The notes beneath the pieces were generated by a model. It did no database searches. It was given only the letters and a program-made list of their open reading frames with translations, and was not told where the DNA came from. Of a DNA stretch of 53,115 bases, positions 12,090-53,115 are shown piece after piece. Position 1 is the first letter of the stretch; every line of letters begins with the position of its first letter. This DNA comes from an uncultured PS1 clade bacterium (GTDB taxonomy: Bacteria > Pseudomonadota > Alphaproteobacteria > MED-G09), in NCBI GenBank assembly GCA_902533755.1, contig CACANC010000005.1:1-53115 (forward strand). The letters run 5' to 3'. The position numbers were made by a program, and so were the translations under genes.

Positions 12090-13896
12090 AAAAACTAATC
12101 ATAACTGTATAGCTTAACCACATTAATAAAACTAGTGGGATTCCTGAAGTAAGATAATCTTTAAATTGATAATTTCCTGGACCCATAACCAAGAGATTTG
12201 TTTTGTAACCAATGGGTGTAGCAAAAGAGCAATTAGCCGCAAAAATTAAACAATAAATAAATGGTTCAGGTTGAATATTAAAATCACTAGCAAGATTAAT
12301 TGCTATTGGAGCAAATAATACTGCAGTTGCGTTATTACTTAAGAAATTTGTAATTATTGCAATAAAAATAAAAAAGAATGACAATACTGTTATCATATCA
12401 AAGTTTATTAAAAGATTTTTTAAAAAATCGGCAATATAGAGGGCTCCGCCTGTTTCCTGAAGTGCCGTAGATAGCATTATTGATGAAGCAACTAATAAAA
12501 ATATTTTTGTATCGAGAGCAGATACAGCATCCCTTATAGTAAGTACATTTGTTAATAACATTAAAATTACTCCAAGCAATGCTGCTACTGTAATGTTTAA
12601 CAGACCAGTTGCAGCAGATAAAATTGTAACAGCAAAAATGATTCTGGATCGAAGAATAAATTGTTTTGCCGGTAGGTATATAGCTGACCATTCAATTGGA
12701 AAAATTTCTTTTTTCCCTCTTAAATTTTTAATATCCTCTTCCTCACCTTTTATTAATAATATATGTCCTGCTTCCATTTTTTGATATCGAGGTAAATTTC
12801 TTAAGAATTTTTTATCATTTTTAATTCCAATGATTTTACAATTCGTTTCTGCTTCAAAGTTAGTTTGTGTTAGATTTCTTCCAATAAAAAACGATCTTGG
12901 TGTAACTGAGGCTTCGATTAAAACTCCTCTTTCTGATGAAAAATTACTATCGTCTATAGAGTTAAAAATATTATCGTTAGATCTTATTTTTTCAGTTAGT
13001 TGATTTTTTGTAATCTCAAGAACTAACTTATCACCAGTTTTTATTGTAATATCCTCAAATGGAGGTAGGATTTTTTCACCATCTCTTAATATTACATTCA
13101 CTGCTATATCTTTTATGTCAGATAGGATACCAGAGGTAAATTTTTTGCCAATTAAGGGGTTTTCTTCGTTAACTGCAATTTCTACCAAATAAATTCTACC
13201 GCTTTCAAAATTTTCTTTGTTATCTTCAACAACACCTTTGTTCTTTTTTTCAAGTATTCTAGGTAAAATAAAAATTGCATATATAAAACCTACCGAAGCT
13301 AATATTATTCCTTGATTTGTGAACTCAAAAAAACCTAGCTCACGTCCAATCAGATTAGAGGTGGTTCCTGAAACTAGTAAATTTGTGGATGACCCTATTA
13401 ATGTTGTCATACCACCTAATATTGAGACATAGGAAAGCGGAATTAAAATTGATCGTGAAGATACATCCATTTGCTTGCTAATTGCTATTATTATTGGAAT
13501 AAACATTATAATAATAGGCGTATTATTTAATGTTGCGCTTAAAATAAAGACCAAGACCATAATTCCATAAAATTTATAAATTGTATTCTTGTCTCTATCC
13601 CCCGATAACCAAACCGCTATATCTTCAAGAGCGCCCGTAACTAGTAAACCATGTCCAATAACCAATAAACTCATTAAAGCTATTAGTGCTGGATTAGCAA
13701 AACCCTGTAATAATAAATTAATATTTATTGGTCCTCCTGAAGAAAGCCCTAAAATAGGACTGTTTTGAAAGACTAATAAAAGAACAACGATTGAAAATAG
13801 AGAAATTATCTCCATTCTTATTTTATCTAATGAATACAATATCATAGTTAGCAATGTTAATCCAAAAACTATCCACATATAAAATTCTTGTGTCAT
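12079..13896 (-). CDS. SLC13/DASS-family permease with central TrkA-C (RCK_C) domains
   Basis: 605 aa. Hydrophobic N- and C-terminal halves flank a soluble about 200-aa segment resembling two TrkA-C repeats. Confidence 0.8.
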   Translation of the reverse strand: MTQEFYMWIVFGLTLLTMILYSLDKIRMEIISLFSIVVLLLVFQNSPILGLSSGGPININLLLQGFANPALIALMSLLVIGHGLLVTGALEDIAVWLSGDRDKNTIYKFYGIMVLVFILSATLNNTPIIIMFIPIIIAISKQMDVSSRSILIPLSYVSILGGMTTLIGSSTNLLVSGTTSNLIGRELGFFEFTNQGIILASVGFIYAIFILPRILEKKNKGVVEDNKENFESGRIYLVEIAVNEENPLIGKKFTSGILSDIKDIAVNVILRDGEKILPPFEDITIKTGDKLVLEITKNQLTEKIRSNDNIFNSIDDSNFSSERGVLIEASVTPRSFFIGRNLTQTNFEAETNCKIIGIKNDKKFLRNLPRYQKMEAGHILLIKGEEEDIKNLRGKKEIFPIEWSAIYLPAKQFILRSRIIFAVTILSAATGLLNITVAALLGVILMLLTNVLTIRDAVSALDTKIFLLVASSIMLSTALQETGGALYIADFLKNLLINFDMITVLSFFFIFIAIITNFLSNNATAVLFAPIAINLASDFNIQPEPFIYCLIFAANCSFATPIGYKTNLLVMGPGNYQFKDYLTSGIPLVLLMWLSYTVMISFFGY

Positions 13897-43419: not shown

Positions 43420-44518
43420 ATTTAAGTTTAAAGTATTAAAAAAAGATGGCTATGCCCGCAAAGGTCTTATTGAAACCAAAAGAGGCAATATTAAAACACC
43501 TGCATTTATGCCTATAGCTACTCAAGGGGCAGTTAAGTTTACTCCGATAGAGTTTATAGAACAGATTGGATATGAATTAACGCTCTCAAATACCTATCAC
43601 TTATTATTAAGACCTGGATTAGAAAAGCTTTCTAGTATTGATGGTATTTCAGAGTTTATGGGATGGAATAAGCCCGTGTTAACAGACTCTGGAGGCTTTC
43701 AGGTGATGTCTCTATCAAAATTAAGAAAAATATCTGAAGAGGGAGTAAAATTCCAATCTCATATTGATGGAACATCACATTTTTTGACTCCTGAAAATGT
43801 AATTGATTATCAGAATATAATTAAGTCTGATATTCAAATGGTTTTAGATGAATGCATTCAATACCCCGAAACTTACGAAAATGTTAAAAAGTCAATGGAG
43901 CTGTCACTCAGATGGGCTGAGAGATCCAGAAAATATTATAATGAAAATAAAATTTATGGAGCTCAATTTGGAATAATTCAAGGAGGTGTATTTGAAGATT
44001 TAAGAGAGATATCAATTTCTGAAACAGTTAATTTTGATTTTGAGGGATATGCTATCGGCGGACTAGCTGTTGGTGAAGGTCATAAAAAAATGATTGAGGT
44101 TGTTGATTATACTGCTCCTCAATTACCTGAAGATAAGGTGAGATATCTGATGGGGGTTGGAAAACCTAATGATATTATTGAGGCAGTTTATAGAGGTATT
44201 GATATTTTTGATTGTGTTATCCCAACCAGAGAAGGAAGACATGGTATCGCTTATATTGGTTCTAGCTCTATTAATATAAAGAATTCTAAATTTGAGAATG
44301 ATTTAACTCCGTTAGATAAAGGCAGTGATTACTTTGTTTCAAAAAAATATTCAAAAAGTTATTTAAATCATTTGTTAAAAATTAAAGACCCTTTAGGACC
44401 AATGTTAATTTCTCTTCATAATCTTAATTATTACTTCAATTTGATGACTGATCTAGGAATATCCATTGAAGAAGGTAGATTAGATAGTTTTCGAGAAGAT
44501 TTTTATAAGGATAATTAA
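43412..44518 (+). CDS. tgt: tRNA-guanine transglycosylase
   Basis: TPAFMPIATQGAVK...LTDSGGFQV...GGLAVGE. Confidence 0.95.
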   Translation: MDKFKFKVLKKDGYARKGLIETKRGNIKTPAFMPIATQGAVKFTPIEFIEQIGYELTLSNTYHLLLRPGLEKLSSIDGISEFMGWNKPVLTDSGGFQVMSLSKLRKISEEGVKFQSHIDGTSHFLTPENVIDYQNIIKSDIQMVLDECIQYPETYENVKKSMELSLRWAERSRKYYNENKIYGAQFGIIQGGVFEDLREISISETVNFDFEGYAIGGLAVGEGHKKMIEVVDYTAPQLPEDKVRYLMGVGKPNDIIEAVYRGIDIFDCVIPTREGRHGIAYIGSSSINIKNSKFENDLTPLDKGSDYFVSKKYSKSYLNHLLKIKDPLGPMLISLHNLNYYFNLMTDLGISIEEGRLDSFREDFYKDN

Positions 44519-44694
44519 TCTTGTGAGGACTCTTTGCTGTCTTCTTTATCAATTTTAGCGGCTTTTACGCATTCTTCTCTTTCAACTCCCGCAGCTGTGC
44601 AAATTAATTCACCTGCAACAGGAATTTCCTCTTTTACTGACGAACAAGAAGTTAACAGTAAAAAAACAAATAAAGAAAAAAAATAGCTTTTCAT
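44515..44694 (-). CDS. small lipoprotein
   Basis: MKSYFFSLFVFLLLTSCSS lipobox. The track ORF extends to 44721; the ATG at 44694 gives a canonical signal peptide. Confidence 0.6.
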   Translation of the reverse strand: MKSYFFSLFVFLLLTSCSSVKEEIPVAGELICTAAGVEREECVKAAKIDKEDSKESSQD

Positions 44695-44804
44695 AAATGC
44701 CCTCTTTTTTGAAATTAGCATATTTAAATGAAATTCAAAATATCTTAATTTTAATCGATTTTATTTGATTTGACCTTAGCAAACATTTAAAAGGTATCTT
44801 GTGT

Positions 44805-44880
44805 GGGCCCGTAGCTCAGTAGGTAGAGCACCTCCCTTTTAAGGAGATTGTCACAGGTTCGATCCCTGTCGGGCTCACCA
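44805..44880 (+). tRNA. tRNA-Lys (anticodon UUU), CCA encoded
   Basis: Manual cloverleaf. Acceptor GGGCCCG/CGGGCTC, D arm GCTC-AGTAGGTA-GAGC, anticodon arm CCTCC-CTTTTAA-GGAGA (one C-A mismatch at 27:43), variable loop TTGTC, T arm ACAGG-TTCGATC-CCTGT, discriminator A, then CCA. Confidence 0.93.
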
Positions 44881-44881
44881 T

Positions 44882-44911
44882 CCTTAAACCAAGGTCAGCC
44901 TTAGTTTTAAG
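44882..44911 (+). terminator. Hairpin immediately 3' of tRNA-Lys (possible tRNA terminator or processing element), conserved in all long module copies
   Basis: CCTTAAACCAAGG-TCAG-CCTTAGTTTTAAG followed by a T-rich stretch. In copy C (48872-48901) a C-to-T change converts the C-A mismatch into a T-A pair. Confidence 0.45.
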
Positions 44912-44948
44912 AAATTTTCCACTCAAATTATATTTCCTGAATTTATAA

Positions 44949-44970
44949 GTTTTCGCAAAGTTTTCGCAAA
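44949..44970 (+). promoter_or_regulatory. Tandem 11-bp direct repeat GTTTTCGCAAA x2 (candidate protein-binding site)
   Basis: Exact tandem duplication with 11-bp periodicity. The same position in other module copies carries variant pairs. Confidence 0.5.
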
Positions 44971-45021
44971 AAAATTTGTGCTAGGTGAAAAAAGAGATAA
45001 GATTTACTCTGGAGCTAACAA

Positions 45022-45630
45022 ATGACAAAGATAGTATATGTTTTAACAAACCCCGCAATGCCTGGCTATGTAAAGATTGGAAAAACAGATAACCTAGTGG
45101 AAAGATTAAAGAGTCTTGATAGAACATCCACTCCTTTGCCTTTTCAGTGTGAATATGCAGCCGAGGTTAATGATGCAGACAAAGTTGAGAAGATTCTTCA
45201 TGATATTTTTGCTGATAAACGCGTAAGAACGAATAGAGAGTTTTTTGAAGTAGACCCTCACCAGATAATTCGTGCCTTCGATCTGCAGGATCATAAAGAT
45301 GTTACGCCAAAAGATGATATCTTTGAAACTGAAGAAGATAAAAAAGCAGTTTTTAAAAAGACTGAATTAAGATCGAGGTTCAATTTTGAAATGGTTAAAA
45401 TTAAACCCGGAATAGAATTATATTTTGCAAAAGATGAAAATATTAAATGTATAGTTAAAGATAAATTTCAGATAGAATTTGAGGGTGAAATACAATCTTT
45501 ATCTCAATCAGCTAAGATAATAATGGATAGACTTGGTTATAATTGGAAACAAATACAGGGTCCCGGCTATTGGATGTATGATAATGAAACTCTTCACGAA
45601 AGAAGAATAAGAATGGAAACCAATGAATAA
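45022..45630 (+). CDS. T5orf172 / GIY-YIG-superfamily (MUG113-like) domain protein with a small C-terminal domain of unknown function (DUF4357-like pattern)
   Basis: N-terminus IVYVLTNPAMPGYVKIGKTDNLVERLKSL...EKILHDIFADKRVRTNREFFEV fits the T5orf172 pattern. C-terminal part: IEFEGEIQSLSQSAKIIMDRLGYNWKQIQGPGYWMY. Confidence 0.75.
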   Translation: MTKIVYVLTNPAMPGYVKIGKTDNLVERLKSLDRTSTPLPFQCEYAAEVNDADKVEKILHDIFADKRVRTNREFFEVDPHQIIRAFDLQDHKDVTPKDDIFETEEDKKAVFKKTELRSRFNFEMVKIKPGIELYFAKDENIKCIVKDKFQIEFEGEIQSLSQSAKIIMDRLGYNWKQIQGPGYWMYDNETLHERRIRMETNE

Positions 45631-45632
45631 AT

Positions 45633-46967
45633 ATGTTTGAGGACTGGCTTAAAAAAGAAAAGAACTTAACAAACACATCTATATCTAAATATTTAAGTGC
45701 TATAGAAAAAATTAATTCTGATTTATTGAGTAAAGAAATTATAAAATCCTCTATTGAAGATTTAAATGAATATGAATTAAGAAAAATAAAGAATAATTAT
45801 TTTAATATCCCTGAAATAGAAGAATTAGATAGCAAAGGTCATAGAATGTATTCTGTGGCATTCAATCATTATATTTCTTACAAAGTCTCTTATAAAACTA
45901 AAATTAAAAATGAAAGCCTAGGTTATGTTTTAAAAGAAATTATTACTAAATATCCCGACGCAATTAAAGAACCAATTCACAATCATAGTTTAGCTGCATT
46001 TATCAGAACAACTGCAGTAGAAATTATCAAAAGTAATCTACCTGAAAAATTTAAATCATTTAAAGTAAAGGGATCAGCTGGAGAAGGGCGATGGATTGGT
46101 ACAGGGAAATCAGAAAGAAATCCATGGATTGCTGTATTAAATAAGAATATCACTAGTGGTGCATCTAAAGGGTACTACACAACTTATTCGTTCATTCATA
46201 AAAGTGATTTTATAATATTAAGTGTTGCTCAATCTGATCAAGAGATGGAATCTAAATATTCTAATAATAAAATTCCTAAGGTTTTGAATAATTATGCAGA
46301 TCTTATGAGGTTACAGCTAAATTCAAAAAAATATTCAAAATTCGACTCAGGTATCCCAGAGGTACTGGATAAAAATGGAGATAAGTTATTTTTAAATCGT
46401 ATTGGTGCGGTTTATCATAAAAAGTATAATATAAATGAACTTCCAAGCGATAAAGAGTTAAAGGAAGACCTTTCTTTAATGTTAGAAGCTTATTGGGATA
46501 TTTATAAAAATGGTGGACGACCAGGTTTAGAAAATGAAATAATTCAAAATAACGAATTCGATCCTAACAATATTGATTCTGAAAAAGAAAAAGTTCTTAG
46601 AAGTGTCACCTATAGAAGAGGTCAAAAAAAATTTCGTGATAACCTTCTTAGAGCATATGATTCAGAATGTGTGATGTCTGGATGTAGGGAAGAAGAGGTA
46701 TTACAAGCAGCGCATATTCTTCCATATACTGATGCTGAAACAAATAAGATAGATAACGGGTTACTTTTAAGAGCTGATCTTCATAACTTATTTGATTTAG
46801 ATTTAATATCAATTAATCCTAAAGATTTTACTATTTTAGTTTCAAGAGAGATTAAGGATTCAGATTATATAAAATTACATGGAAAAGAAATAAAGATGCC
46901 CAAGAGTAAAATTAAAAGTCCTAGTAAAAAAGCTTTAAAAATACATTTTAAGAATTTTAAGGGGTAA
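45633..46967 (+). CDS. three-part protein with an N-terminal helical domain, a DUF3578 (McrB N-terminal-like DNA-binding) domain and a C-terminal HNH nuclease; putative Type IV (modification-dependent) restriction-like enzyme
   Basis: FKVKGSAGEGRWIGTGKSERNPWIAVLNKN...GYYTTYSF resembles the DUF3578 core. C-terminus: YRRGQKKFRDNLLRAYDSECVMSGCREEEVLQAAHILPY...NGLLLRADLHNLFDLDLISI, an HNH_2-type motif. It starts 2 nt after the upstream stop. Confidence 0.75.
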   Translation: MFEDWLKKEKNLTNTSISKYLSAIEKINSDLLSKEIIKSSIEDLNEYELRKIKNNYFNIPEIEELDSKGHRMYSVAFNHYISYKVSYKTKIKNESLGYVLKEIITKYPDAIKEPIHNHSLAAFIRTTAVEIIKSNLPEKFKSFKVKGSAGEGRWIGTGKSERNPWIAVLNKNITSGASKGYYTTYSFIHKSDFIILSVAQSDQEMESKYSNNKIPKVLNNYADLMRLQLNSKKYSKFDSGIPEVLDKNGDKLFLNRIGAVYHKKYNINELPSDKELKEDLSLMLEAYWDIYKNGGRPGLENEIIQNNEFDPNNIDSEKEKVLRSVTYRRGQKKFRDNLLRAYDSECVMSGCREEEVLQAAHILPYTDAETNKIDNGLLLRADLHNLFDLDLISINPKDFTILVSREIKDSDYIKLHGKEIKMPKSKIKSPSKKALKIHFKNFKG

Positions 46968-46968
46968 G

Positions 46969-47050
46969 TTCCTTATTAGGAAGAGTGTCACATTCTAACT
47001 TAATTTATCAAAAAATATGATGAATAGTTTTCGCAAAGTTTTCGCAAAAA
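46969..47050 (+). repeat. Degenerate, internally deleted boundary module (E1): tRNA core-like TTAGGAAGAGTGTCAC plus GTTTTCGCAAA x2
   Basis: 46976-46991 resembles the tRNA segment TTAAGGAGATTGTCAC. 47027-47048 is identical to the tandem motif of copy A. About 75% identical by eye to 50262-50331. Confidence 0.7.
47027..47048 (+). promoter_or_regulatory. Tandem 11-bp direct repeat GTTTTCGCAAA x2
   Basis: Exact tandem, identical to 44949-44970. Confidence 0.5.
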
Positions 47051-47177
47051 TAGTTTTACTACATCTTTTTTACTCTTTTCTACTCTTTCGTTTTTTTAAT
47101 ACTAAACATAGGGTTTACTTAGGTTTCAAGGTAAATAACTGTATTTATTAAACATATAAAATATACTACACCAATGG

Positions 47178-47417
47178 CTTTTAAGGAGATTGTCACAGGT
47201 TCGATCCCTGTCGGGCTCACCATCCTTAAACCAAGGTCAGCCTTAGTTTTAAGAGATTTTCCACTCAAATTATATTTATCTAATTTCTTGGTTTCCGCAA
47301 AGTTTCCGCAAAAAAATTTGTGCTAGGTGAAAAAAGTATTACTCTTTGGTTAGCAAGGAGGAACTTATGAAGAAAGTTTTATTAGGTTTAGTTATCGCCG
47401 TAATGATGACTGGTAGT
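47178..47417 (+). repeat. Boundary module copy B: orphan tRNA-Lys 3' half plus leader, RBS and the first 17 codons of a lipoprotein signal peptide
   Basis: 47178-47222 is identical to tRNA positions 32-76. Similarity to copy C continues through AAGGAGGAACTTATGAAGAAAGTTTTATTAGGTTT...ATGATGACTGG. Confidence 0.9.
47291..47312 (+). promoter_or_regulatory. Tandem 11-bp direct repeat GTTTCCGCAAA x2 (variant)
   Basis: Both units carry the same T-to-C change relative to copy A. Confidence 0.5.
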
Positions 47418-47438
47418 GGGAATAGTTTAAGGAACTAA
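47367..47438 (+). pseudogene. Orphan 5' fragment (signal peptide only) of the NTF2-like lipoprotein gene
   Basis: MKKVLLGLVIAVMMTGSGNSLRN*. The first 17 residues are near-identical to the N-terminus of the 49014 gene, after which the sequence diverges and stops. Confidence 0.7.
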
Positions 47439-47446
47439 TAAGTTAA

Positions 47447-48193
47447 ATGAGCGGAACAATAACTCTTTTAATTATTCTTCTTGCTACTCTAAGTACAGCA
47501 TTTTTGTCGTCAATTTTTGGAATGTTAGGCGGCCTCATTTTAATAGGTGTATTGATTACTATAATGCCTGTAAGTCAGGCAATGGTCTTACATGGATTAA
47601 TTCAATTAACATCAAATGGTTATCGAGCATGGCTTAATAAAACAGATATTAAATGGAATATTGTTTCTACATTAATTATCGGTAATATTATCTCACTAGT
47701 TTGTTTATTCTCATTAGCTTTTGTACCTGATAAAATAACTGTACTTTTAGTATTAGGTTTATTGCCATACATAGCTTGGGCGATTCCTAAAAATAACTCC
47801 TTAGATGTAAGCAAAAAACCAATTGGTATTTTAGCTGGCATGGTGGTGGTGGGTAGTAATCTTCTATCTGGTACAGGAGGCCCTTTATTAGATATTTTTT
47901 TCCAGCGAGTAAATATGAATCGCCATCAGGTTGTTGCAACCAAAGCTGTAGCTCAAAGTTTAGGCCATATATCTAAGATAATATTTTTTGGTTTTCTTAC
48001 AACATCTAAATTTAATACTTGGCCAAGTTTTTGGCTAATTTTTTTTGCTGTGATAGCTTCTGTTATCGGAACTACTTTAGGAAAAATAATATTAGATAAA
48101 ATTGACGATAGAACCTTCTTTGTATGGACACAAAGCATCTTACTAACTATTGGTGCTGTGTTTATAGCCTATGCACTCTATCTAATGAAATGA
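47447..48193 (+). CDS. TauE/SafE (TSUP, DUF81) family anion exporter
   Basis: 248 aa, about 7-8 TM segments, with glycine-rich motifs FGMLGGLILIGVL and GSNLLSGTGGPLL typical of the family. Confidence 0.75.
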   Translation: MSGTITLLIILLATLSTAFLSSIFGMLGGLILIGVLITIMPVSQAMVLHGLIQLTSNGYRAWLNKTDIKWNIVSTLIIGNIISLVCLFSLAFVPDKITVLLVLGLLPYIAWAIPKNNSLDVSKKPIGILAGMVVVGSNLLSGTGGPLLDIFFQRVNMNRHQVVATKAVAQSLGHISKIIFFGFLTTSKFNTWPSFWLIFFAVIASVIGTTLGKIILDKIDDRTFFVWTQSILLTIGAVFIAYALYLMK

Positions 48194-48261
48194 GCTATAT
48201 AAGGAAGGTTTAATACTTACAGAGATTGGAGCAAAGAAACTGATGCAACTGTTTTTTTATA

Positions 48262-48798
48262 TCAATTTTCAAAATTACCCTCTAAAGGCCAGGGATCGCA
48301 TTTATATTCTTTTTCACCAAAAAAATCAGTCAAAGTATCTTTATTTCTATCGTAAAACCAAACTGCAATAATATTTTCTATTTTTAAATCTGGAGTAGGA
48401 GTTAAAGGTTGATTGCAATAGGTTATCACATCATGAATATGATCCTCTAGATGAGTATTAGAAAGGCAATTTGGATCTGCATGTTCTTTGATATATTGAA
48501 GCTTTCCTGAAACTCTCTCTTGAACCCTGAAATGAAGATATGTATCCCCATTATATTTTTCTAATAACAAAACTACATAACGGCTTTCATGATTTTGTGC
48601 GCATCTGAGCATATGACTTAGAGAGAAATTATTTAAATCTTGTTTTGCGTAAGCTCTATTGTTTAAAAAGAAATAAGCAATAAGGGATAGGAAAAGTAAA
48701 ATTATAAGTGAAATTAAGCCACCCTTTATAATTTGCCTCCAAAACATTCCTACAAGAATTAATGTTACTATTATTATTAAAACTGTCATTATATTCAT
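48262..48798 (-). CDS. hypothetical membrane-anchored protein (2 N-terminal TM segments plus a Cys-containing soluble domain)
   Basis: Long ORF with a hydrophobic N-terminus and 4 Cys in the C-terminal domain. I recognise no family. Confidence 0.55.
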   Translation of the reverse strand: MNIMTVLIIIVTLILVGMFWRQIIKGGLISLIILLFLSLIAYFFLNNRAYAKQDLNNFSLSHMLRCAQNHESRYVVLLLEKYNGDTYLHFRVQERVSGKLQYIKEHADPNCLSNTHLEDHIHDVITYCNQPLTPTPDLKIENIIAVWFYDRNKDTLTDFFGEKEYKCDPWPLEGNFEN

Positions 48799-48825
48799 AT
48801 ATCAATAAATAAACCCAATATCTAT

Positions 48826-49064
48826 CTTTTAAGGAAATTGTCACAGGTTCGATCCCTGTCGGGCTCACCATCCTTAAACTAAGGCCAGCCTTAGTTTCAA
48901 GAGATTTTCCACTCAAAATATATTTATCTAATTCTTTGGTTTGCACAAGGTTTGCACAAAAAATTTGTGCTAGGTAAAAAAAGAGTTACTCTTTGGTTAA
49001 CAAGGAGGAACTTATGAAGAAAGTTTTATTAGGTTTGGTTATCGCCTCAATGATGACTGGAAGT
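48826..49064 (+). repeat. Boundary module copy C: orphan tRNA-Lys 3' half plus leader, here joined to a full-length lipoprotein gene (probably the ancestral tRNA flank)
   Basis: 48826-48870 matches tRNA positions 32-76 with 1 mismatch (GGAGA to GGAAA). The hairpin, tandem motif, TTTGTGCTAGGT box and RBS are all present. Confidence 0.9.
48939..48960 (+). promoter_or_regulatory. Tandem 11-bp direct repeat GTTTGCACAAG / GTTTGCACAAA (variant)
   Basis: Both units share the GCAC core change relative to copies A and B. Confidence 0.5.
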
Positions 49065-49457
49065 ATTTATGCATGCAAAACGCCTGAAGAGTTAATGGAT
49101 AATTATTTTAATGACTTTAGTTCTGGCGATATAAAAAAAGTTGAGAGAAATTATTCATTTCCATTAATCGTTATTCAAAACGGTAATAAAACCATTCACG
49201 ATGAAATTTCAACTTTTTTAAATTTTAAAGAAATTAAAAAAACTGGATGGAAAGAGTCAGTTATTAATTCAGTAATGATTATTTTAAAAAAAGATAAATC
49301 AGCTGTTACACAAGTGAATTTTTCAAGAGTTAATAACAAGGGTGATATATATTTAACAACAGATGCAAATTATATTCTTATAAAAGAAGATGAAGATTGG
49401 TACATCTCAGGAGTAATTATTGATAGCGATGTTCCACTTGGTATAGAAAATTATTAA
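49014..49457 (+). CDS. exported or lipoprotein-type NTF2-like (SnoaL/DUF4440-like) protein
   Basis: MKKVLLGLVIASMMTGSIYAC signal or lipobox-like sequence. AAGGAGGA lies 6 nt upstream of the ATG. Paralog of the 51208 gene (shared ending DEDWYISGVI versus DEEWLISGVF). Confidence 0.7.
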   Translation: MKKVLLGLVIASMMTGSIYACKTPEELMDNYFNDFSSGDIKKVERNYSFPLIVIQNGNKTIHDEISTFLNFKEIKKTGWKESVINSVMIILKKDKSAVTQVNFSRVNNKGDIYLTTDANYILIKEDEDWYISGVIIDSDVPLGIENY

Positions 49458-49530
49458 GGGAAATCGGATATTTAGAATATAGTCTGTTATATTTTAATGC
49501 TTGGTCTACATTGTGTGATTAGGAGGATTT

Positions 49531-50223
49531 TTAAGGTTTAAGTATTTTATTTAAATCTCTTACTTCTTTATCAACCATACAGATGGCATCAATTATTGTA
49601 GCGTTAGGGGAATCCTCTATCCTATACATCCATATATTATCACTTTTTTCAGTTAACTCTATTTCTTCACCATCACCCATTAAACCCGAGTAACCGAAGA
49701 TACGAACAGACCTCATTCTAAACTTATTACAATCTATTTGATTTAAAAATTTTACAGATTTGAAATCCTTCTCTTGTGTAGAGGTATCATGCATTGTGAT
49801 AATGTATCTAATATTATTATGTCGAGCGTAACTATTAAGATCAATATATACTTTGACACCATCTTTACTCTCACCTAATAATTCCCAAATTTCTGGATAG
49901 GTTTCCGCCTTAATCTTTAAATTATATTGTTCACTTACACTCGCAATACCACCAATATTTGTTGCATTGGTATAACCAAGTTCATCTAAGATTACTTTTG
50001 CTCTACCTGATCTATTACCGCTTCTGCAATACAATAAAATTTCTTCATCTTTTGAAATTTCATAATTTTCGATATCAGTTTTAATCTCTGATAAGGGAAT
50101 ATGAATAGCACCTTCTATATGCCCAGCATTCCATTCTTCATCAGTTCTAACATCTATCATTACGGAATAAGCATTCCCACTAAACCCAAATATCAAAACT
50201 AACGCTATAAGTATTTTATTCAT
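49531..50223 (-). CDS. periplasmic rhodanese-domain protein fused to a C-terminal domain of unknown function (adhesin-E-like pattern, tentative)
   Basis: Signal peptide MNKILIALVLIFGFSGNAYS. Rhodanese segment IDVRTDEEWNAGHIEGAIHIP...LLYCRSGNRSGRA with the active-site Cys loop. An about 120-aa C-terminal extension contains 2 Cys. Confidence 0.75.
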   Translation of the reverse strand: MNKILIALVLIFGFSGNAYSVMIDVRTDEEWNAGHIEGAIHIPLSEIKTDIENYEISKDEEILLYCRSGNRSGRAKVILDELGYTNATNIGGIASVSEQYNLKIKAETYPEIWELLGESKDGVKVYIDLNSYARHNNIRYIITMHDTSTQEKDFKSVKFLNQIDCNKFRMRSVRIFGYSGLMGDGEEIELTEKSDNIWMYRIEDSPNATIIDAICMVDKEVRDLNKILKP

Positions 50224-50261
50224 TAGAAAAATATAGCATAAAAAAATAAACCTGCGGCCAT

Positions 50262-50331
50262 TTCCTTATTAAGGAGAGTGTCAAACCTTAAATTAATTTA
50301 TAGATAAACATGATGACTATTTTTAACAAAG
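50262..50331 (+). repeat. Degenerate, internally deleted boundary module (E2): core-like TTAAGGAGAGTGTCA
   Basis: 50269-50283 matches the tRNA segment TTAAGGAGATTGTCA at 14/15 positions. The overall stretch is about 75% identical by eye to 46969-47038. Confidence 0.65.
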
Positions 50332-50443
50332 AGAATTTAGTTGTTACTATTGAATTTTTTAAAGAAAACACCAAATATAGTATATCATTCAAGTAGTAAG
50401 ATAATTCTTACAAAATGCCCTAATTTTCGTAATAGGAGTATTT

Positions 50444-51052
50444 ATGAAAAGAATTTGTTTAATATTTGGTCACCACAATACAAAAGACTCTTTTAATGCT
50501 GCTATAAGAGATGCTTTCATTGATGAGGCTGAAAAAATTGGTCATAAAATTGATCTAATAAATTTGTTCGATGAAGAAGAACAATTACCTTTTTACAGAA
50601 CAGATATTAATCCTCCTCCGCAAAAAGTACTAGATTATAGAGAAAGACTTGAAAAATCTGATGTTATGTTTTTGATGAGTGCATGTCATAATTTAAGAAT
50701 GAGTGGAATTACAGAAAATTGGATTGATTGGGTTTTACATCCAAAATGGTTCTTTTCATATAGATCGCTTTTACCCGATAGTAAATTTTTTGGGAACTAC
50801 GGTTATCCAGTTCCAGGCGCTATGAAAAATAAAATTGGAGTAGTTTCTATGACTTATGGAGGCCCAATGATAAGTTATTTTAACTTTTCCTTGTTTGATA
50901 ACATTCCATACAGAAGATTAAAAAAATCTGTTTTTTCTTTGGGCGGTTTAAAAATTAAATATTTAAGATTTTACTCTGTTCTTCCAATCATGACTAAAAA
51001 AATGTTTGATAAAAATATAAAAAAAGTAAGAAAATTTGCTCAAAGTTTATGA
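50444..51052 (+). CDS. flavodoxin-like fold NAD(P)H-dependent oxidoreductase (Flavodoxin_2 / quinone reductase-like)
   Basis: MKRICLIFGHHNTKDSFNAAIRDAFIDEAEKIGHKIDLINLF...ERLEKSDVMFL resembles the N-terminus of MdaB/KefG/NQO-type proteins. Confidence 0.7.
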   Translation: MKRICLIFGHHNTKDSFNAAIRDAFIDEAEKIGHKIDLINLFDEEEQLPFYRTDINPPPQKVLDYRERLEKSDVMFLMSACHNLRMSGITENWIDWVLHPKWFFSYRSLLPDSKFFGNYGYPVPGAMKNKIGVVSMTYGGPMISYFNFSLFDNIPYRRLKKSVFSLGGLKIKYLRFYSVLPIMTKKMFDKNIKKVRKFAQSL

Positions 51053-51055
51053 TAA

Positions 51056-51095
51056 GAGTAACTTATGAAGAAAGTTTTATTAGGTTTAGTCATTG
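51056..51095 (+). repeat. Leader-only fragment (D) of the boundary module: RBS-proximal sequence plus the first signal-peptide codons
   Basis: AACTTATGAAGAAAGTTTTATTAGGTTTAGT is identical to the copy B segment 47362-47392. Confidence 0.75.
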
Positions 51096-51181
51096 TAATA
51101 ATTATGGCAATATTATTCTTATTTTTTGGTAATTGGCTGGACGAACTAAAACATCTAATTAATGTCAATCATGTTCACTAA
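51065..51181 (+). CDS. 38-aa hydrophobic peptide whose first 9 codons derive from the repeated leader; may be a remnant rather than a gene
   Basis: MKKVLLGLVIVIIMAILFLFFGNWLDELKHLINVNHVH*, from manual translation. Confidence 0.3.
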   Translation: MKKVLLGLVIVIIMAILFLFFGNWLDELKHLINVNHVH

Positions 51182-51207
51182 TTTTACCTTTATTATTGGA
51201 GTATATA

Positions 51208-51675
51208 ATGAAAAAAATTTTATTAAGTTTAGTCATGACTTTAATAATGACGGCTAATGGATACGCAGATGAAATTGAAATTAAAAAAATAAAAGATAAA
51301 CATGATACTTATTATAAATACCTTTTTGAAAATGATATGAATAGTTTGGCTAAATTATTCTCTTTCCCCGCCGTTTTTAAGGGGTTCGTAAATGAAGTCC
51401 AAATTGCAAAAAATAAAAAAGAAATAAAAAATATCTACGAAAACCTTATTAAAGCAGCCCCTCAATCAAAATTTGCTAACAAAGGTATAAATTATACCGA
51501 AATAAACACAAAAGTTGAAAATAAATCAATTTTTAAAATGCGTGAAGATACATATATGCTTATAGTAAAGTATACTCAGAGTGATAAAAAAGATAATTCA
51601 TTAATTTTTTCTGGAAGAGCATCATATTTATTTATAAAAGATGATGAAGAGTGGTTAATATCAGGTGTATTTTAG
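51208..51675 (+). CDS. exported NTF2-like protein, paralog of 49014..49457
   Basis: MKKILLSLVMTLIMTANGYA signal peptide. Same length class and C-terminal DEEWLISGVF. GGAG lies upstream of the ATG at 51208. Confidence 0.7.
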   Translation: MKKILLSLVMTLIMTANGYADEIEIKKIKDKHDTYYKYLFENDMNSLAKLFSFPAVFKGFVNEVQIAKNKKEIKNIYENLIKAAPQSKFANKGINYTEINTKVENKSIFKMREDTYMLIVKYTQSDKKDNSLIFSGRASYLFIKDDEEWLISGVF

Positions 51676-51769
51676 CTCTATAATGATAAATATCCTCAAA
51701 AAATAATGTATCAAATCGATTAAACTAAAATATTATAAAAGAATTTTCATAACTGATCAGGAGAAAATA

Positions 51770-52018
51770 ATGAATTTATCTATGGAACTAACAGCTTATC
51801 CATTGGAAGACAAATATCTTCCAGTAATAGAAAAATATATTGAACATTTAAGAGGTTATAAAAAAATTAAGCTAGAAGTCTTTCCGACTTGTTCAGTATT
51901 ATTTGGCAAACATGATGATGTTGTGGAAGCATTAAGCTCATCAATCAAGTGGAGTGTTGAGCATAAAAATAAAGTTGTCTTTATATCTAAATTTTTACCA
52001 AATTATGAAGCAATATAA
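51770..52018 (+). CDS. small hypothetical protein (possibly YkoF/MTH1187-like fold, tentative)
   Basis: 82 aa with GGAG upstream. The pattern ELTAYPLED..LPVIEKYIEHLR...LEVFPTCSVLFGKHDDVVEAL recalls DUF77-type proteins but is unverified. Confidence 0.5.
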   Translation: MNLSMELTAYPLEDKYLPVIEKYIEHLRGYKKIKLEVFPTCSVLFGKHDDVVEALSSSIKWSVEHKNKVVFISKFLPNYEAI

Positions 52019-52029
52019 AGGAGAATAAC

Positions 52030-52380
52030 ATGAAAGGCGCTAAGGAAATTATTGAAACTTTTTGGAAAATCCAAGATGGAGGAGATTATACTAAGGTGGT
52101 AGAATTATTTGCAGAAGATGCTGTTTTAGTTGATCCCTTTTTTGGAACATTTGAGGGTAAAAAAGCAATTGGAGGATTTATGAAGAAAATGAACAAAGAA
52201 ATGACCTCAAGAGAGACAAGTTTTATTGCAAAAGAAATAGATGGAGGCGGGGAGGTTGCTTGGGCACAATGGACTGCTAAAACTCCAAATGGGGATGTAG
52301 AAGGCTGTGGTTTATATAGAGTCAAGAATGGAATGATGACTTATTATAAAGACTATATGAATGCGCCTAAAGAGAACTAA
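52030..52380 (+). CDS. SnoaL-like / NTF2-superfamily protein
   Basis: IIETFWKIQDGGDYTKVVELFAEDAVLVDPFFGTFEGKKAIGGFM...GCGLYRVKNGMMTYYKDY. Confidence 0.75.
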   Translation: MKGAKEIIETFWKIQDGGDYTKVVELFAEDAVLVDPFFGTFEGKKAIGGFMKKMNKEMTSRETSFIAKEIDGGGEVAWAQWTAKTPNGDVEGCGLYRVKNGMMTYYKDYMNAPKEN

Positions 52381-52469
52381 ATATAATAATAATTAAATTT
52401 AATTAAACAAATACTATCTTTAATTAGATTTTTATCCTATAAGCTTTTTAAATTTTAAGGAGACTAAAT

Positions 52470-52688
52470 ATGCCATCAGGTAAAGTTAAATGGTTCAATG
52501 CCAATAAAGGTTTTGGATTTATTGAAAATGATGAAGGCGGCGATGATGTATTCGTACATATTTCTGCTGTTCAAGAATCAGGATTGGGAACTCTAAATGA
52601 TAACGATCATATAAATTTTGAGATTGTTGAAAATAGAGGAAAAAATGCTGCTGCAAATCTAACAAGAGTAGAATCAAGCGAAGAGTAA
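52470..52688 (+). CDS. cspA: cold-shock protein (CspA family)
   Basis: [31 protein letters not shown] (RNP1 and RNP2 motifs). Confidence 0.93.
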
Positions 52689-52780
52689 AACTAAATAATA
52701 TAGCTATCTTTAAGAATTATCAAAATTTAATCACTATCGAACTTAACGACCTTAATAAGGGTCAATCAAAATATTTTTAA

Positions 52781-53115
52781 ATGGAAAATTTTATGAGTGA
52801 ATTATCAGATATAGCTGAATCTATTCGTAATTATAAATTAAATGCAGACGGTGGATATGAAGAATGGGCAAAAGTTCCATGTTCTGAAGATTATAGAATG
52901 TATGTTCCTTCAATGGGTTTTGATGTTACTGGAGCTGATGAAGTAAAGGAAGTGATCTTCGGTTGGTTAACTGATATAGAAGCTGTACAAGAACTAGTAA
53001 ATATTATTGAATTTGAAAATACCGTTACAACATTTCTGCACATATCAAATAAAGACGACGAAATATTAAATATTGTTGAAGTCTTTAAAATTGATGATGA
53101 TGGAAAAGTTTTTGA
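52781..53115 (+). CDS. hypothetical protein, 3'-truncated by the window end (possibly another NTF2-like paralog)
   Basis: Open frame with no stop from ATG 52781 (alternative ATG at 52793) to the window end. It ends ...VEVFKIDDDGKVF, a typical SnoaL-like C-terminal pattern. Confidence 0.5.
   Translation, partial: MENFMSELSDIAESIRNYKLNADGGYEEWAKVPCSEDYRMYVPSMGFDVTGADEVKEVIFGWLTDIEAVQELVNIIEFENTVTTFLHISNKDDEILNIVEVFKIDDDGKVF

Follow-up and report, generated by a model that had tools for sequence, protein, structure and literature searches.

A tRNA-Lys island in a marine alphaproteobacterium as a probable row of attachment-site scars, with a cassette most likely moved by a phage integrase

We analysed a 53,115-nucleotide stretch of DNA from an uncultured PS1 clade bacterium (contig CACANC010000005.1 of assembly GCA_902533755.1; the whole stretch is called the window below), in which an earlier note, made from the letters alone, had described a long repeated unit behind the gene for tRNA-Lys(UUU). 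We consider it probable that the region after this tRNA is an additive island of repeated site-specific integration, in which the repeats are scars of attachment (att) sites and the cassette next to the tRNA, cassette 1, was most likely moved in trans by a phage integrase. The window represents a low-GC marine alphaproteobacterium (GC ~30%); the genomes nearest to it come from single cells and are labelled OCS116 cluster. The island is preceded by the core genes gyrA, coaD, a peptidyl-prolyl isomerase gene, queA and tgt.

The repeated unit occurs in three copies of 160-240 nt, which start at 44836 (copy A), 47178 (copy B) and 48826 (copy C). It runs from the tRNA 3' half through a hairpin, two tandem 11-mers and the box AAATTTGTGCTAGGT into a leader with AAGGAGGA, and our alignment of the three copies confirms the earlier description of a unit that reaches well beyond the tRNA and includes hairpin, tandem motif, box and ribosome-binding site. 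In this three-way alignment the copies share their first base, which is located in the anticodon loop CTTTTAA and marks the crossover position. Over 159 ungapped nt, copy B is 94% and copy C, with a 1-nt indel, 80% identical to copy A. Copies A and B form a mosaic, being identical through the hairpin, divergent in the spacer and the 11-mers, and identical again in the box, which is found exactly 3 times in the window vs 0.39 expected by chance. Copies B and C are 93% identical over 107 nt (47311-47417 vs 48958-49064), up to codon 17 of MKKVLLGLVIA.MMTGS, and the 17 signal-peptide codons noted before are indeed common to these two copies and to them only. Copy A had been thought to end exactly at the ATG of the first cargo gene (45022), but its solid homology already stops at 44994, the end of the box. 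A cassette-specific leader follows, which has 7 extra bases, keeps only TTACTCT and a weak match up to the ATG, and is also present in L036 (L numbers denote comparator loci and phage contigs). A fourth, signal-peptide-only piece (51065-51095, family D2) opens a 38-amino-acid open reading frame (ORF); the piece is real, but the ORF can no longer be taken for an artefact of fusion, as an identical protein is found on 8 contigs and a homologue stands behind a module in L002. An Rfam search of 44000-53115 gave a meaningful score for the tRNA alone, the 2 other listed matches being far under their gathering scores. The features of the repeats are as follows.

44805-44880, plus strand: intact tRNA-Lys(UUU) gene, the sole tRNA gene of the window (ARAGORN, Rfam)
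44836-44842, plus strand: anticodon loop CTTTTAA, the crossover core; all fragments begin at this base
44836-45021, plus strand: copy A, P'-arm-type module of cassette 1 (alignment), with the 11-mer found on both arms of phage L049/L050
44881-44912, plus strand: hairpin of copy A, part of module A
44948-44969, plus strand: 11-mer pair of copy A, AGTTTTCGCAA twice, part of module A
44970-44994, plus strand: A-tract and box of copy A, part of module A
44995-45021, plus strand: cassette-specific leader of copy A, part of module A
46969-47008, plus strand: anticodon-arm-like palindrome segment (TTCCTTATTAGGAA GAGTGTCAC...), the junction where island P arms are truncated
47009-47177, plus strand: P-arm relic of a phage attachment site, with the 11-mer pair AGTTTTCGCAA twice at 47026-47047 (aligned with phages L049 and L047)
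47178-47366, plus strand: copy B (repeat search and alignments)
47178-47222, plus strand: tRNA 3' half of copy B, followed by the hairpin
47290-47311, plus strand: 11-mer pair of copy B, GGTTTCCGCAA AGTTTCCGCAA, with the A-tract next to it
47318-47323, 47340-47345 and 47355-47362, plus strand: TTGTGC, TACTCT and AAGGAGGA of copy B (alignments)
48804-48825, plus strand: ~22 nt left of a second phage type's P arm (AATAAATAAACCCAATATCTAT), matching the core left flank in phage L048 and in L014
48826-49013, plus strand: copy C, with tRNA 3' half, hairpin, 11-mer pair GGTTTGCACAA twice (48938-48959), box and leader (alignments); its 11-mer is also found on the P' arm of phage L105
50262-50440, plus strand: old degenerate palindrome and P-arm relic (D6b), after the rhodanese gene (repeat search)
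51052-51181, plus strand: truncated leader, then the conserved 38-amino-acid ORF, whose homologue comes first behind the module in L002

Comparator loci were obtained from an exact-pattern scan of species-representative genomes (3 loci, two of the three from single-cell genomes labelled OCS116 cluster bacterium), from a metagenome scan (20 loci) and from look-ups of window proteins, and comprise 41 module copies with 27 distinct module sequences. The exact look-up of the window lipoprotein returned one single-cell genome only, and that of the TauE protein returned no exact-match record. The tRNA fragments of L014, L017, L021 and L046 begin at CTTTTAA, as in the window; another fragment type, seen in L013 and L036, starts at TTTTAA and has an 11-nt internal deletion. 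The 210 nt left of copy B (46969-47177), which contain the anticodon-arm-like palindrome and an 11-mer pair of their own, recur before the tRNA fragments in L021, L017 and L046, with a decayed copy at window 50262. The palindrome junction is found at all of these places and is absent from the phages described below, a viral scan for the island palindrome giving no match; in L040-L045 the palindrome of D6b has an unchanged position. A third left-flank type (L013:1-260, reverse strand; L036:640-830) carries its own tandem 11-mer, AGAGAGTAAAT AGAGAGTAAAC, and a viral scan for this type-3 11-mer was empty, no viral contig being matched.

Further islands were approached through homologues of tgt. 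Contigs of the window's own species end at the tRNA, and a 78%-identical species has a fixed island. In this second group (L024-L032, e.g. L024:11420-13580; tgt 78% identical), a further tRNA-Lys of full length is found 2.1 kb downstream of the first, and the pair encloses a 435-amino-acid gene and a DCC1-like gene. A hairpin and an 11-mer pair follow the first tRNA-Lys, the second has no module, and the arrangement is identical in 10/10 places read.

The arms that flank the repeats originate from phage attachment sites (attP). Using the 45-nt tRNA 3' half as a query, a scan of viral contigs yielded two contigs, L047 and L048, and integrase homologues together with a degenerate 11-mer scan led to five further attP sites (L049/L050, L051-L053, L105, L112 and L124). 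We thus have seven temperate tailed-phage contigs in which attP contains the tRNA 3' half. Six of the seven share P arm, core, P' arm and spacing (type 1); the arm repeat differs in the seventh, L048, where it is TTCCGTCTTTT, present twice on both arms. L047 and L048 both contain genes for a tape measure protein, a distal tail protein and a tail fibre, and in both an integrase gene adjoins attP, identified by Pfam (PF00589 at 2e-18 in L047) and by PHROG integrase matches for both; homologous integrases adjoin attP in L049, L051, L105 and L124. No relative of the phage integrase above ~32% identity was found in the cultured-phage collection. To the left of copy B, 169 nt share ~96% identity with the phage P arm, and 123/128 nt between the 11-mers and the core are identical to L047, 11-mers excluded (stretch 47026-47177). 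To the right of its core, L047 has the tRNA half, a hairpin, an 11-mer pair at the offset seen in the window, A7 plus CTTG, and int. The left flank of L048 is the one that precedes copy C in the window and is found in L014. The two 11-mer pairs start 261 nt apart in all six type-1 sites, as measured from exact matches to both pairs in L047, L105, L112 and L124 and from coordinates in L049 and L051. In L105 (reverse strand, ~12930-13300) the attP core, read by eye, resembles the anticodon loop of a different tRNA (CTTCTAA), and the arm layout is kept.

The 11-mer pair begins 64-67 nt after the tRNA end (CCA) in window and island modules and in phage P' arms alike, and in a six-way alignment the pairs of modules A-C and of three phage P' arms occupy the same columns, each being followed by A7 and YTTG. 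We found 14 variants of the 11-mer in islands, the units of one module being nearly always alike, and 6/6 variants of the type-1 phages also occur in island modules. The 11-mer is the same on both arms in L047, L049/L050, L112, L124 and L048. The variants of the type-1 phages are given here.

L047 and L112: TATTCACAA on both arms
L049/L050: TTTTCGCAA on both arms, the variant of window cassette 1
L124: TTTCTGCAA on both arms, the variant of the L021 cassette
L051: TATCCACAA on both arms, the P' pair differing in junction bases
L105: TTTGGACAA on P and TTTGCACAA on P', the arms being 1 nt apart

We compared the integrases that accompany these sites. Those of L047 and L049 are 91% identical overall, with 32/50 identical residues in the first 50 and 49-50/50 in most later stretches. 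Among L047, L049 and L124, residues 1-45 are identical at 27-33/45 positions and residues 46-95 at 45-49/50 (90-98%). The integrases of L047 and L051, at 66% overall identity, share 36/45 of residues 1-45, and the 11-mers of these two phages are 1 base apart. In the set compared here, the 11-mers co-vary with integrase residues 1-45. The arm-binding domain of lambda-type integrases is N-terminal. Because of this, of the variable extreme N-terminus, and of a weak Pfam arm-DNA-binding match at residues 41-62 beside it, we read the tandem 11-mers as predicted arm-type sites of the tyrosine integrase.

Other interpretations of the 11-mers were considered and dropped. Neither DnaA boxes, nor a target-site duplication or excision footprint, nor the core of a second recombinase fits motifs that are paired on both attP arms and vary with the integrase N-terminus. 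Slippage may add to the agreement within a pair, as single-unit modules exist beside double-unit ones, but taken alone it leaves the matching of the two arms unexplained.

Cassette 1 (44836-47177) carries both arms. The pair in its right arm (47026-47047) is identical to that of module A (44948-44969), which makes four identical 11-mers, and the L021 cassette likewise has identical left and right pairs, here of the variant TTTCTGCAA. As its 11-mers match those of cassette 1's right arm and of one particular phage, module A would have arrived with cassette 1. The cargo consists of two genes.

45022-45630, plus strand: gene 1, T5orf172/MUG113 protein (Pfam; PADLOC PDC-S57 at 7e-72)
45633-46967, plus strand: gene 2, MrcB_N plus HNH protein (Pfam; PADLOC HNH at 6e-20)

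Both genes look like defence genes, and we regard them as a candidate defence pair. The pair was found again in L036, L038 and L039; it follows an intact tRNA in L038, L039 and the window, and a tRNA fragment of a different type in L036. Pfam and PADLOC revealed no integrase or transfer genes among the cassette 1 cargo, no integrase was found in the window's island (Pfam; PADLOC of cargo), and none is contained in the precomputed Pfam lists for the island genes of L021, L037 and L046. The module itself appears to be the P' arm of a distinct lineage, which lacks an integrase and has the arm sites alone in common with the phages, because its hairpin and spacer differ from those of phage P' arms, its hairpin was found in no viral contig in a scan for it, and no integrase gene was seen behind the module in ~30 module contexts. 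Since all four of its 11-mers belong to a single phage lineage, cassette 1, with both arms and no integrase, is most likely a hitcher similar to a cis-mobilizable element (CIME) or a satellite, moved in trans by an L049-type integrase, and it may still be mobilised today.

The module hairpin (e.g. window 44884-44911, L046:7805-7832) may have a role of its own. The changes seen in it make or break pairs (CCAAGG/CCTTAG, CTAAGG/CCTTAG, CCAAGG/CCTTGG), with one double compensatory change (CTAATG/CATTAG). It lacks a following T-run and is therefore not a typical terminator.

We propose the following course of events. Elements would integrate repeatedly at the anticodon loop of tRNA-Lys(UUU), and each repeat copy would be an att scar composed of the crossover core and the P' arm, the tRNA 3' half of which rebuilds the gene. 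Such a scar would consist of the tRNA 3' half, the hairpin, two 11-bp arm sites, the A-tract, a -35-like hexamer, the ribosome-binding site and the first gene, with island cargo genes taking the place that int has in the phage layout. Each copy would have adjoined the tRNA up to the arrival of the next element, which displaced it inward. The repeat would be far longer than the tRNA because successive elements of the same family bring homologous P' arms, rather than by duplication of the target. The L021-type cassette would likewise be moved in trans by the matching phage integrase. Later homologous recombination between modules would shuffle their left and right parts, generating mosaics, and would delete cassettes, leaving solo modules such as L002, where an intact tRNA and a complete module are followed by a close homologue of the 38-amino-acid ORF, SnoaL and Csp. 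Recombination in the similar signal-peptide codons, or illegitimate joining, would set new genes behind the leader. L003, L004 and L042, in which tRNA and module are followed by the TauE cassette, appear to show how the window looked before the arrival of cassette 1: the junction before TauE (...TGSG/NSLRN and stop) is identical in the window, L003 and L004, and L042 has the same gene order.

Several observations weigh against this account. No integrase was seen in any island locus, so mobilisation in trans is something that we infer, and neither a circular nor an excised junction was observed. Nor does unit 2 (module B to 48825) form a coherent element, as it combines a module with type-1 11-mers and, at its right end, a relic of the type-2 phage. 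Outside the 11-mers, the similarity of the module to the L047 P' arm is marginal (10/500 shuffles reach or beat the local alignment), and that to the L048 P' arm is not significant. In addition, the left module and the right P arm of L046 carry different 11-mers, a mismatch that may be attributed to later conversion since modules 1 and 2 of this locus are identical over ~150 nt. Some of these points would fit a decay of prophages only, in which the units are remnants of full prophages, the cargo came in by later unrelated events and no small mobilised element existed. Decay would agree with the missing integrase and excision junction, with the composite unit 2 and with the old relic at 50262, which every examined locus of the same species contains, and the shared truncation junction could have been spread by homologous recombination. 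We nevertheless regard it as unlikely. Module A has phage 11-mers but neither phage hairpin nor phage spacer, which decay of the left attachment site (attL) of a prophage cannot yield. Moreover, the same truncated right end occurs with four different 11-mer variants, two of which match their own left module, and the cassette-1 genes with their own leader are found at different array positions.

The earlier note had suggested that insertion may proceed by homologous recombination across the long module rather than by an integrase reaction. Such recombination appears to have acted afterwards: modules A and B are mosaics with identical hairpin and box and divergent spacer and 11-mers, modules 1 and 2 of L046 differ in their hairpins despite the identical ~150 nt, and one and the same TauE cassette is found behind three different left module parts. 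Recombination without any integrase step is a very improbable origin, however, as the fragments start in the anticodon loop and attP arms are left beside them; three left-flank types end at this one position, and two of the three are phage attP arms adjoining integrase genes. Recombination accounts for the reshuffling of modules, not for the origin of the fragments. We find it hardly credible that the module is native intergenic DNA of the host, with 11-mers that are host regulatory repeats imitated by phages. Even 'empty' sites such as L002 contain the module, but it is absent from L005 and from the second tRNA-Lys of L024, the 11-mer variants track integrase N-terminal variants, and single- and double-unit modules both occur, as solo scars predict. 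Finally, the idea of integron-like capture, with a single resident promoter by the tRNA that acts like Pc on promoterless incoming cassettes, rests on a row of cassettes at one site and on many unrelated genes joined near their ATG to the same upstream leader. We give it next to no weight. Every cassette has its own module copy, and the copy beside the tRNA belongs to the newest element according to its matching 11-mers, having come with cassette 1. No IntI-type integrase gene and no single Pc promoter were seen; the ends are phage P arms, with no attC-like ends recognised by eye. Neither attI nor attC was recognisable, Rfam being meaningful for the tRNA alone and no dedicated attC model having been run.

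We next consider the box and the leader. The box has the position of a -35-like hexamer upstream of int in related phages, where we identified by eye the hexamer pairs TTGTAA-N16-TATTAT (L051), TTGAAA-N17-TAATAA (L049) and TTGTAA-N17-TAATTT (L047), with a ribosome-binding site and int ~45 nt after the pair. In the module, again by eye, TTGTGC-N16-TACTCT is followed by a ribosome-binding site and the cargo gene, and the box may thus act as the -35 region of a promoter. Two results speak against this. A sigma-70 promoter/terminator scan found 31 sites vs 36.9 expected in shuffled sequence and left the box hexamers unflagged, and the 7 extra bases of copy A put TTGTGC and TACTCT 23 nt apart. The scan flagged TTAAGA-N16-TATATT within the module (44907-44934, 47249-47276), which stays as an alternative promoter. 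We dropped the idea that the leader RNA has a conserved structure (TGCTA pairing with TAGCA), as by inspection L002 and L021 break the pairing without compensation. The common expression leader proposed earlier holds descriptively, at least 12 unrelated first genes being joined to the module, but a single resident promoter does not. The genes of the island would share one leader and signal peptide because the leader belongs to the att arm and can acquire new downstream genes through recombination inside it.

The positions at which modules and cargo join were also compared. New cassettes do not always join at the same nucleotide, as there are at least seven break positions, but joins of plus-strand genes cluster at two of them, the gap between ribosome-binding site and ATG and the codons 17-20 of the signal peptide.

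Directly after the tRNA: L005, which has no module at all
Before the 11-mers: L009, L012
After the 11-mers: L006
After the box: L007, L019
Within the leader: L001, L018, L023, L010
Between ribosome-binding site and ATG: L013, L014, L017, L021, L037, window copy A
After signal-peptide codon 17-20: window copies B and C, L003, L004, L008, L020, L046

In L041 and L043 the module is cut at the 11-mer and joined to the rhodanese gene. A 9-nt stretch, TATAAGTAT, is common to the module and to the reverse-strand start of the rhodanese gene at this type of join (L009, L012, L041 and L043 vs window 50200-50223). In L001 (1860-2938), and also in L018 and L023, reverse-strand cargo of visibly higher GC lies inside the leader; the L001 insert has ~15-nt direct copies (TTAYTCTTTGGTTAG) on both sides, and such insertions represent a different entry route into the island.

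We compared the island to known systems. The features of the seven phage contigs resemble lambda-type attP sites of tRNA-targeting tyrosine integrases in the crossover at the anticodon loop, the tRNA 3' part carried by the element, the tandem sites on both arms, the position of int next to P', and the core direct repeats that flank integrated copies. Unlike there, the 11-mer pairs have fixed positions, as seen from the constant 261 nt in the six type-1 phages, and the central bases of the 11-mer differ between near-identical phages, apparently shifting with integrase residues 1-45, which putatively bind them. At P2/P4-type hotspots, defence genes of temperate phages and satellites are located beside att and int. 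The candidate defence pair (PDC-S57 and HNH) likewise lies directly beside an att arm, but its carrier is without any phage or satellite genes. Cassette 1, with two genes, also differs from phage-inducible chromosomal islands and P4-like satellites in having no integrase, regulator, replication or packaging-hijack genes of its own.

Closer parallels are found among elements that accrete at att sites. CIMEs take part in tandem accretion at att sites in streptococcal integrative and conjugative elements (ICEs) as well as integrative and mobilizable elements (PMC5704250). Shared with them are the retention of attL and attR in the absence of own integration genes, and an arrangement in tandem at a tRNA gene's 3' part, where arrays grow by same-site integration. 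Both ends look functional in cassette 1 (module A and the P arm, with four identical 11-mers), and the L021 cassette is built alike. Unlike in CIMEs, the helper would here be a temperate phage and not an ICE, and the left arm appears to be a lineage of its own, having only arm sites in common with the helper, rather than a decayed helper arm. Prochlorococcus tycheposons carry an integrase with integration and replication modules, and their att motif is typically ~40 nt (bioRxiv 10.1101/2020.12.28.424599). Their islands, too, are found in a streamlined marine host beside tRNA genes, with partial tRNAs left by serial integrations, newer elements pushing older ones inward and degraded remnants persisting. 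In contrast to tycheposons, there is no tyrosine recombinase or replication module among the cargo genes here, and the homologous unit is 160-240 nt instead of ~40 nt, because the P' arms here are related.

Taken as a whole, the island would have grown in a known way, with integrase variants that match putative binding sites unusually clearly. What appears to go beyond known cases is the phage as the presumed helper, the hitcher arm as a lineage of its own, and the fine-scale co-variation of arm sites with the integrase N-terminus. The gain and loss of flexible genes in streamlined marine bacteria is only partly understood, and the locus offers a concrete, testable system, with candidate helper phages, a defined attP layout and natural variants of integrase and arm sites, in which small cassettes, one of them with candidate defence genes, appear to use a phage integrase. 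The localised variation at the integrase N-terminus, matched in four putative sites, would make a clean natural example of recombinase-site co-evolution. Possible, though rather doubtful, is the further idea that small integrase-less cassettes are obligate hitchers on particular phage integrases and that the 11-mer is a specificity code diversifying with integrase residues 1-45, which could limit cross-reaction between phages or serve to escape hitchers. As the 11-mers abut the putative -35 hexamer of the cargo, integrase binding could even couple cargo expression, for instance that of the defence pair, to the presence of a phage.

The remaining cargo of the island includes a rhodanese-AdhesinE protein, a flavodoxin-like protein and the genes below.

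47367-47438, plus strand: short orphan signal-peptide ORF of 23 codons ahead of TauE
47447-48193, plus strand: TauE/SafE-family permease, unit 2 cargo (Pfam)
48262-48798, minus strand: 178-amino-acid membrane protein with no assigned function, unit 2 cargo (ORF, Pfam)
49014-49457, plus strand: NTF2-like putative lipoprotein, whose first 17 codons lie in the repeat (Pfam)

The orphan ORF is present as had been noted, and the same junction is kept before TauE in L003 and L004. Its stop lies 8 nt before the TauE start (window 47367-47446; also in L003 and L004), and there is no good ribosome-binding site at the usual distance; translation of TauE may be coupled to that of the orphan ORF. The proteins encoded at 49014-49457 and 51208-51675 are paralogous NTF2-like putative lipoproteins within the one island. 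Their signal-peptide codons are ~75% identical in DNA, and this identity could provide the homology for joining new genes to the leader.

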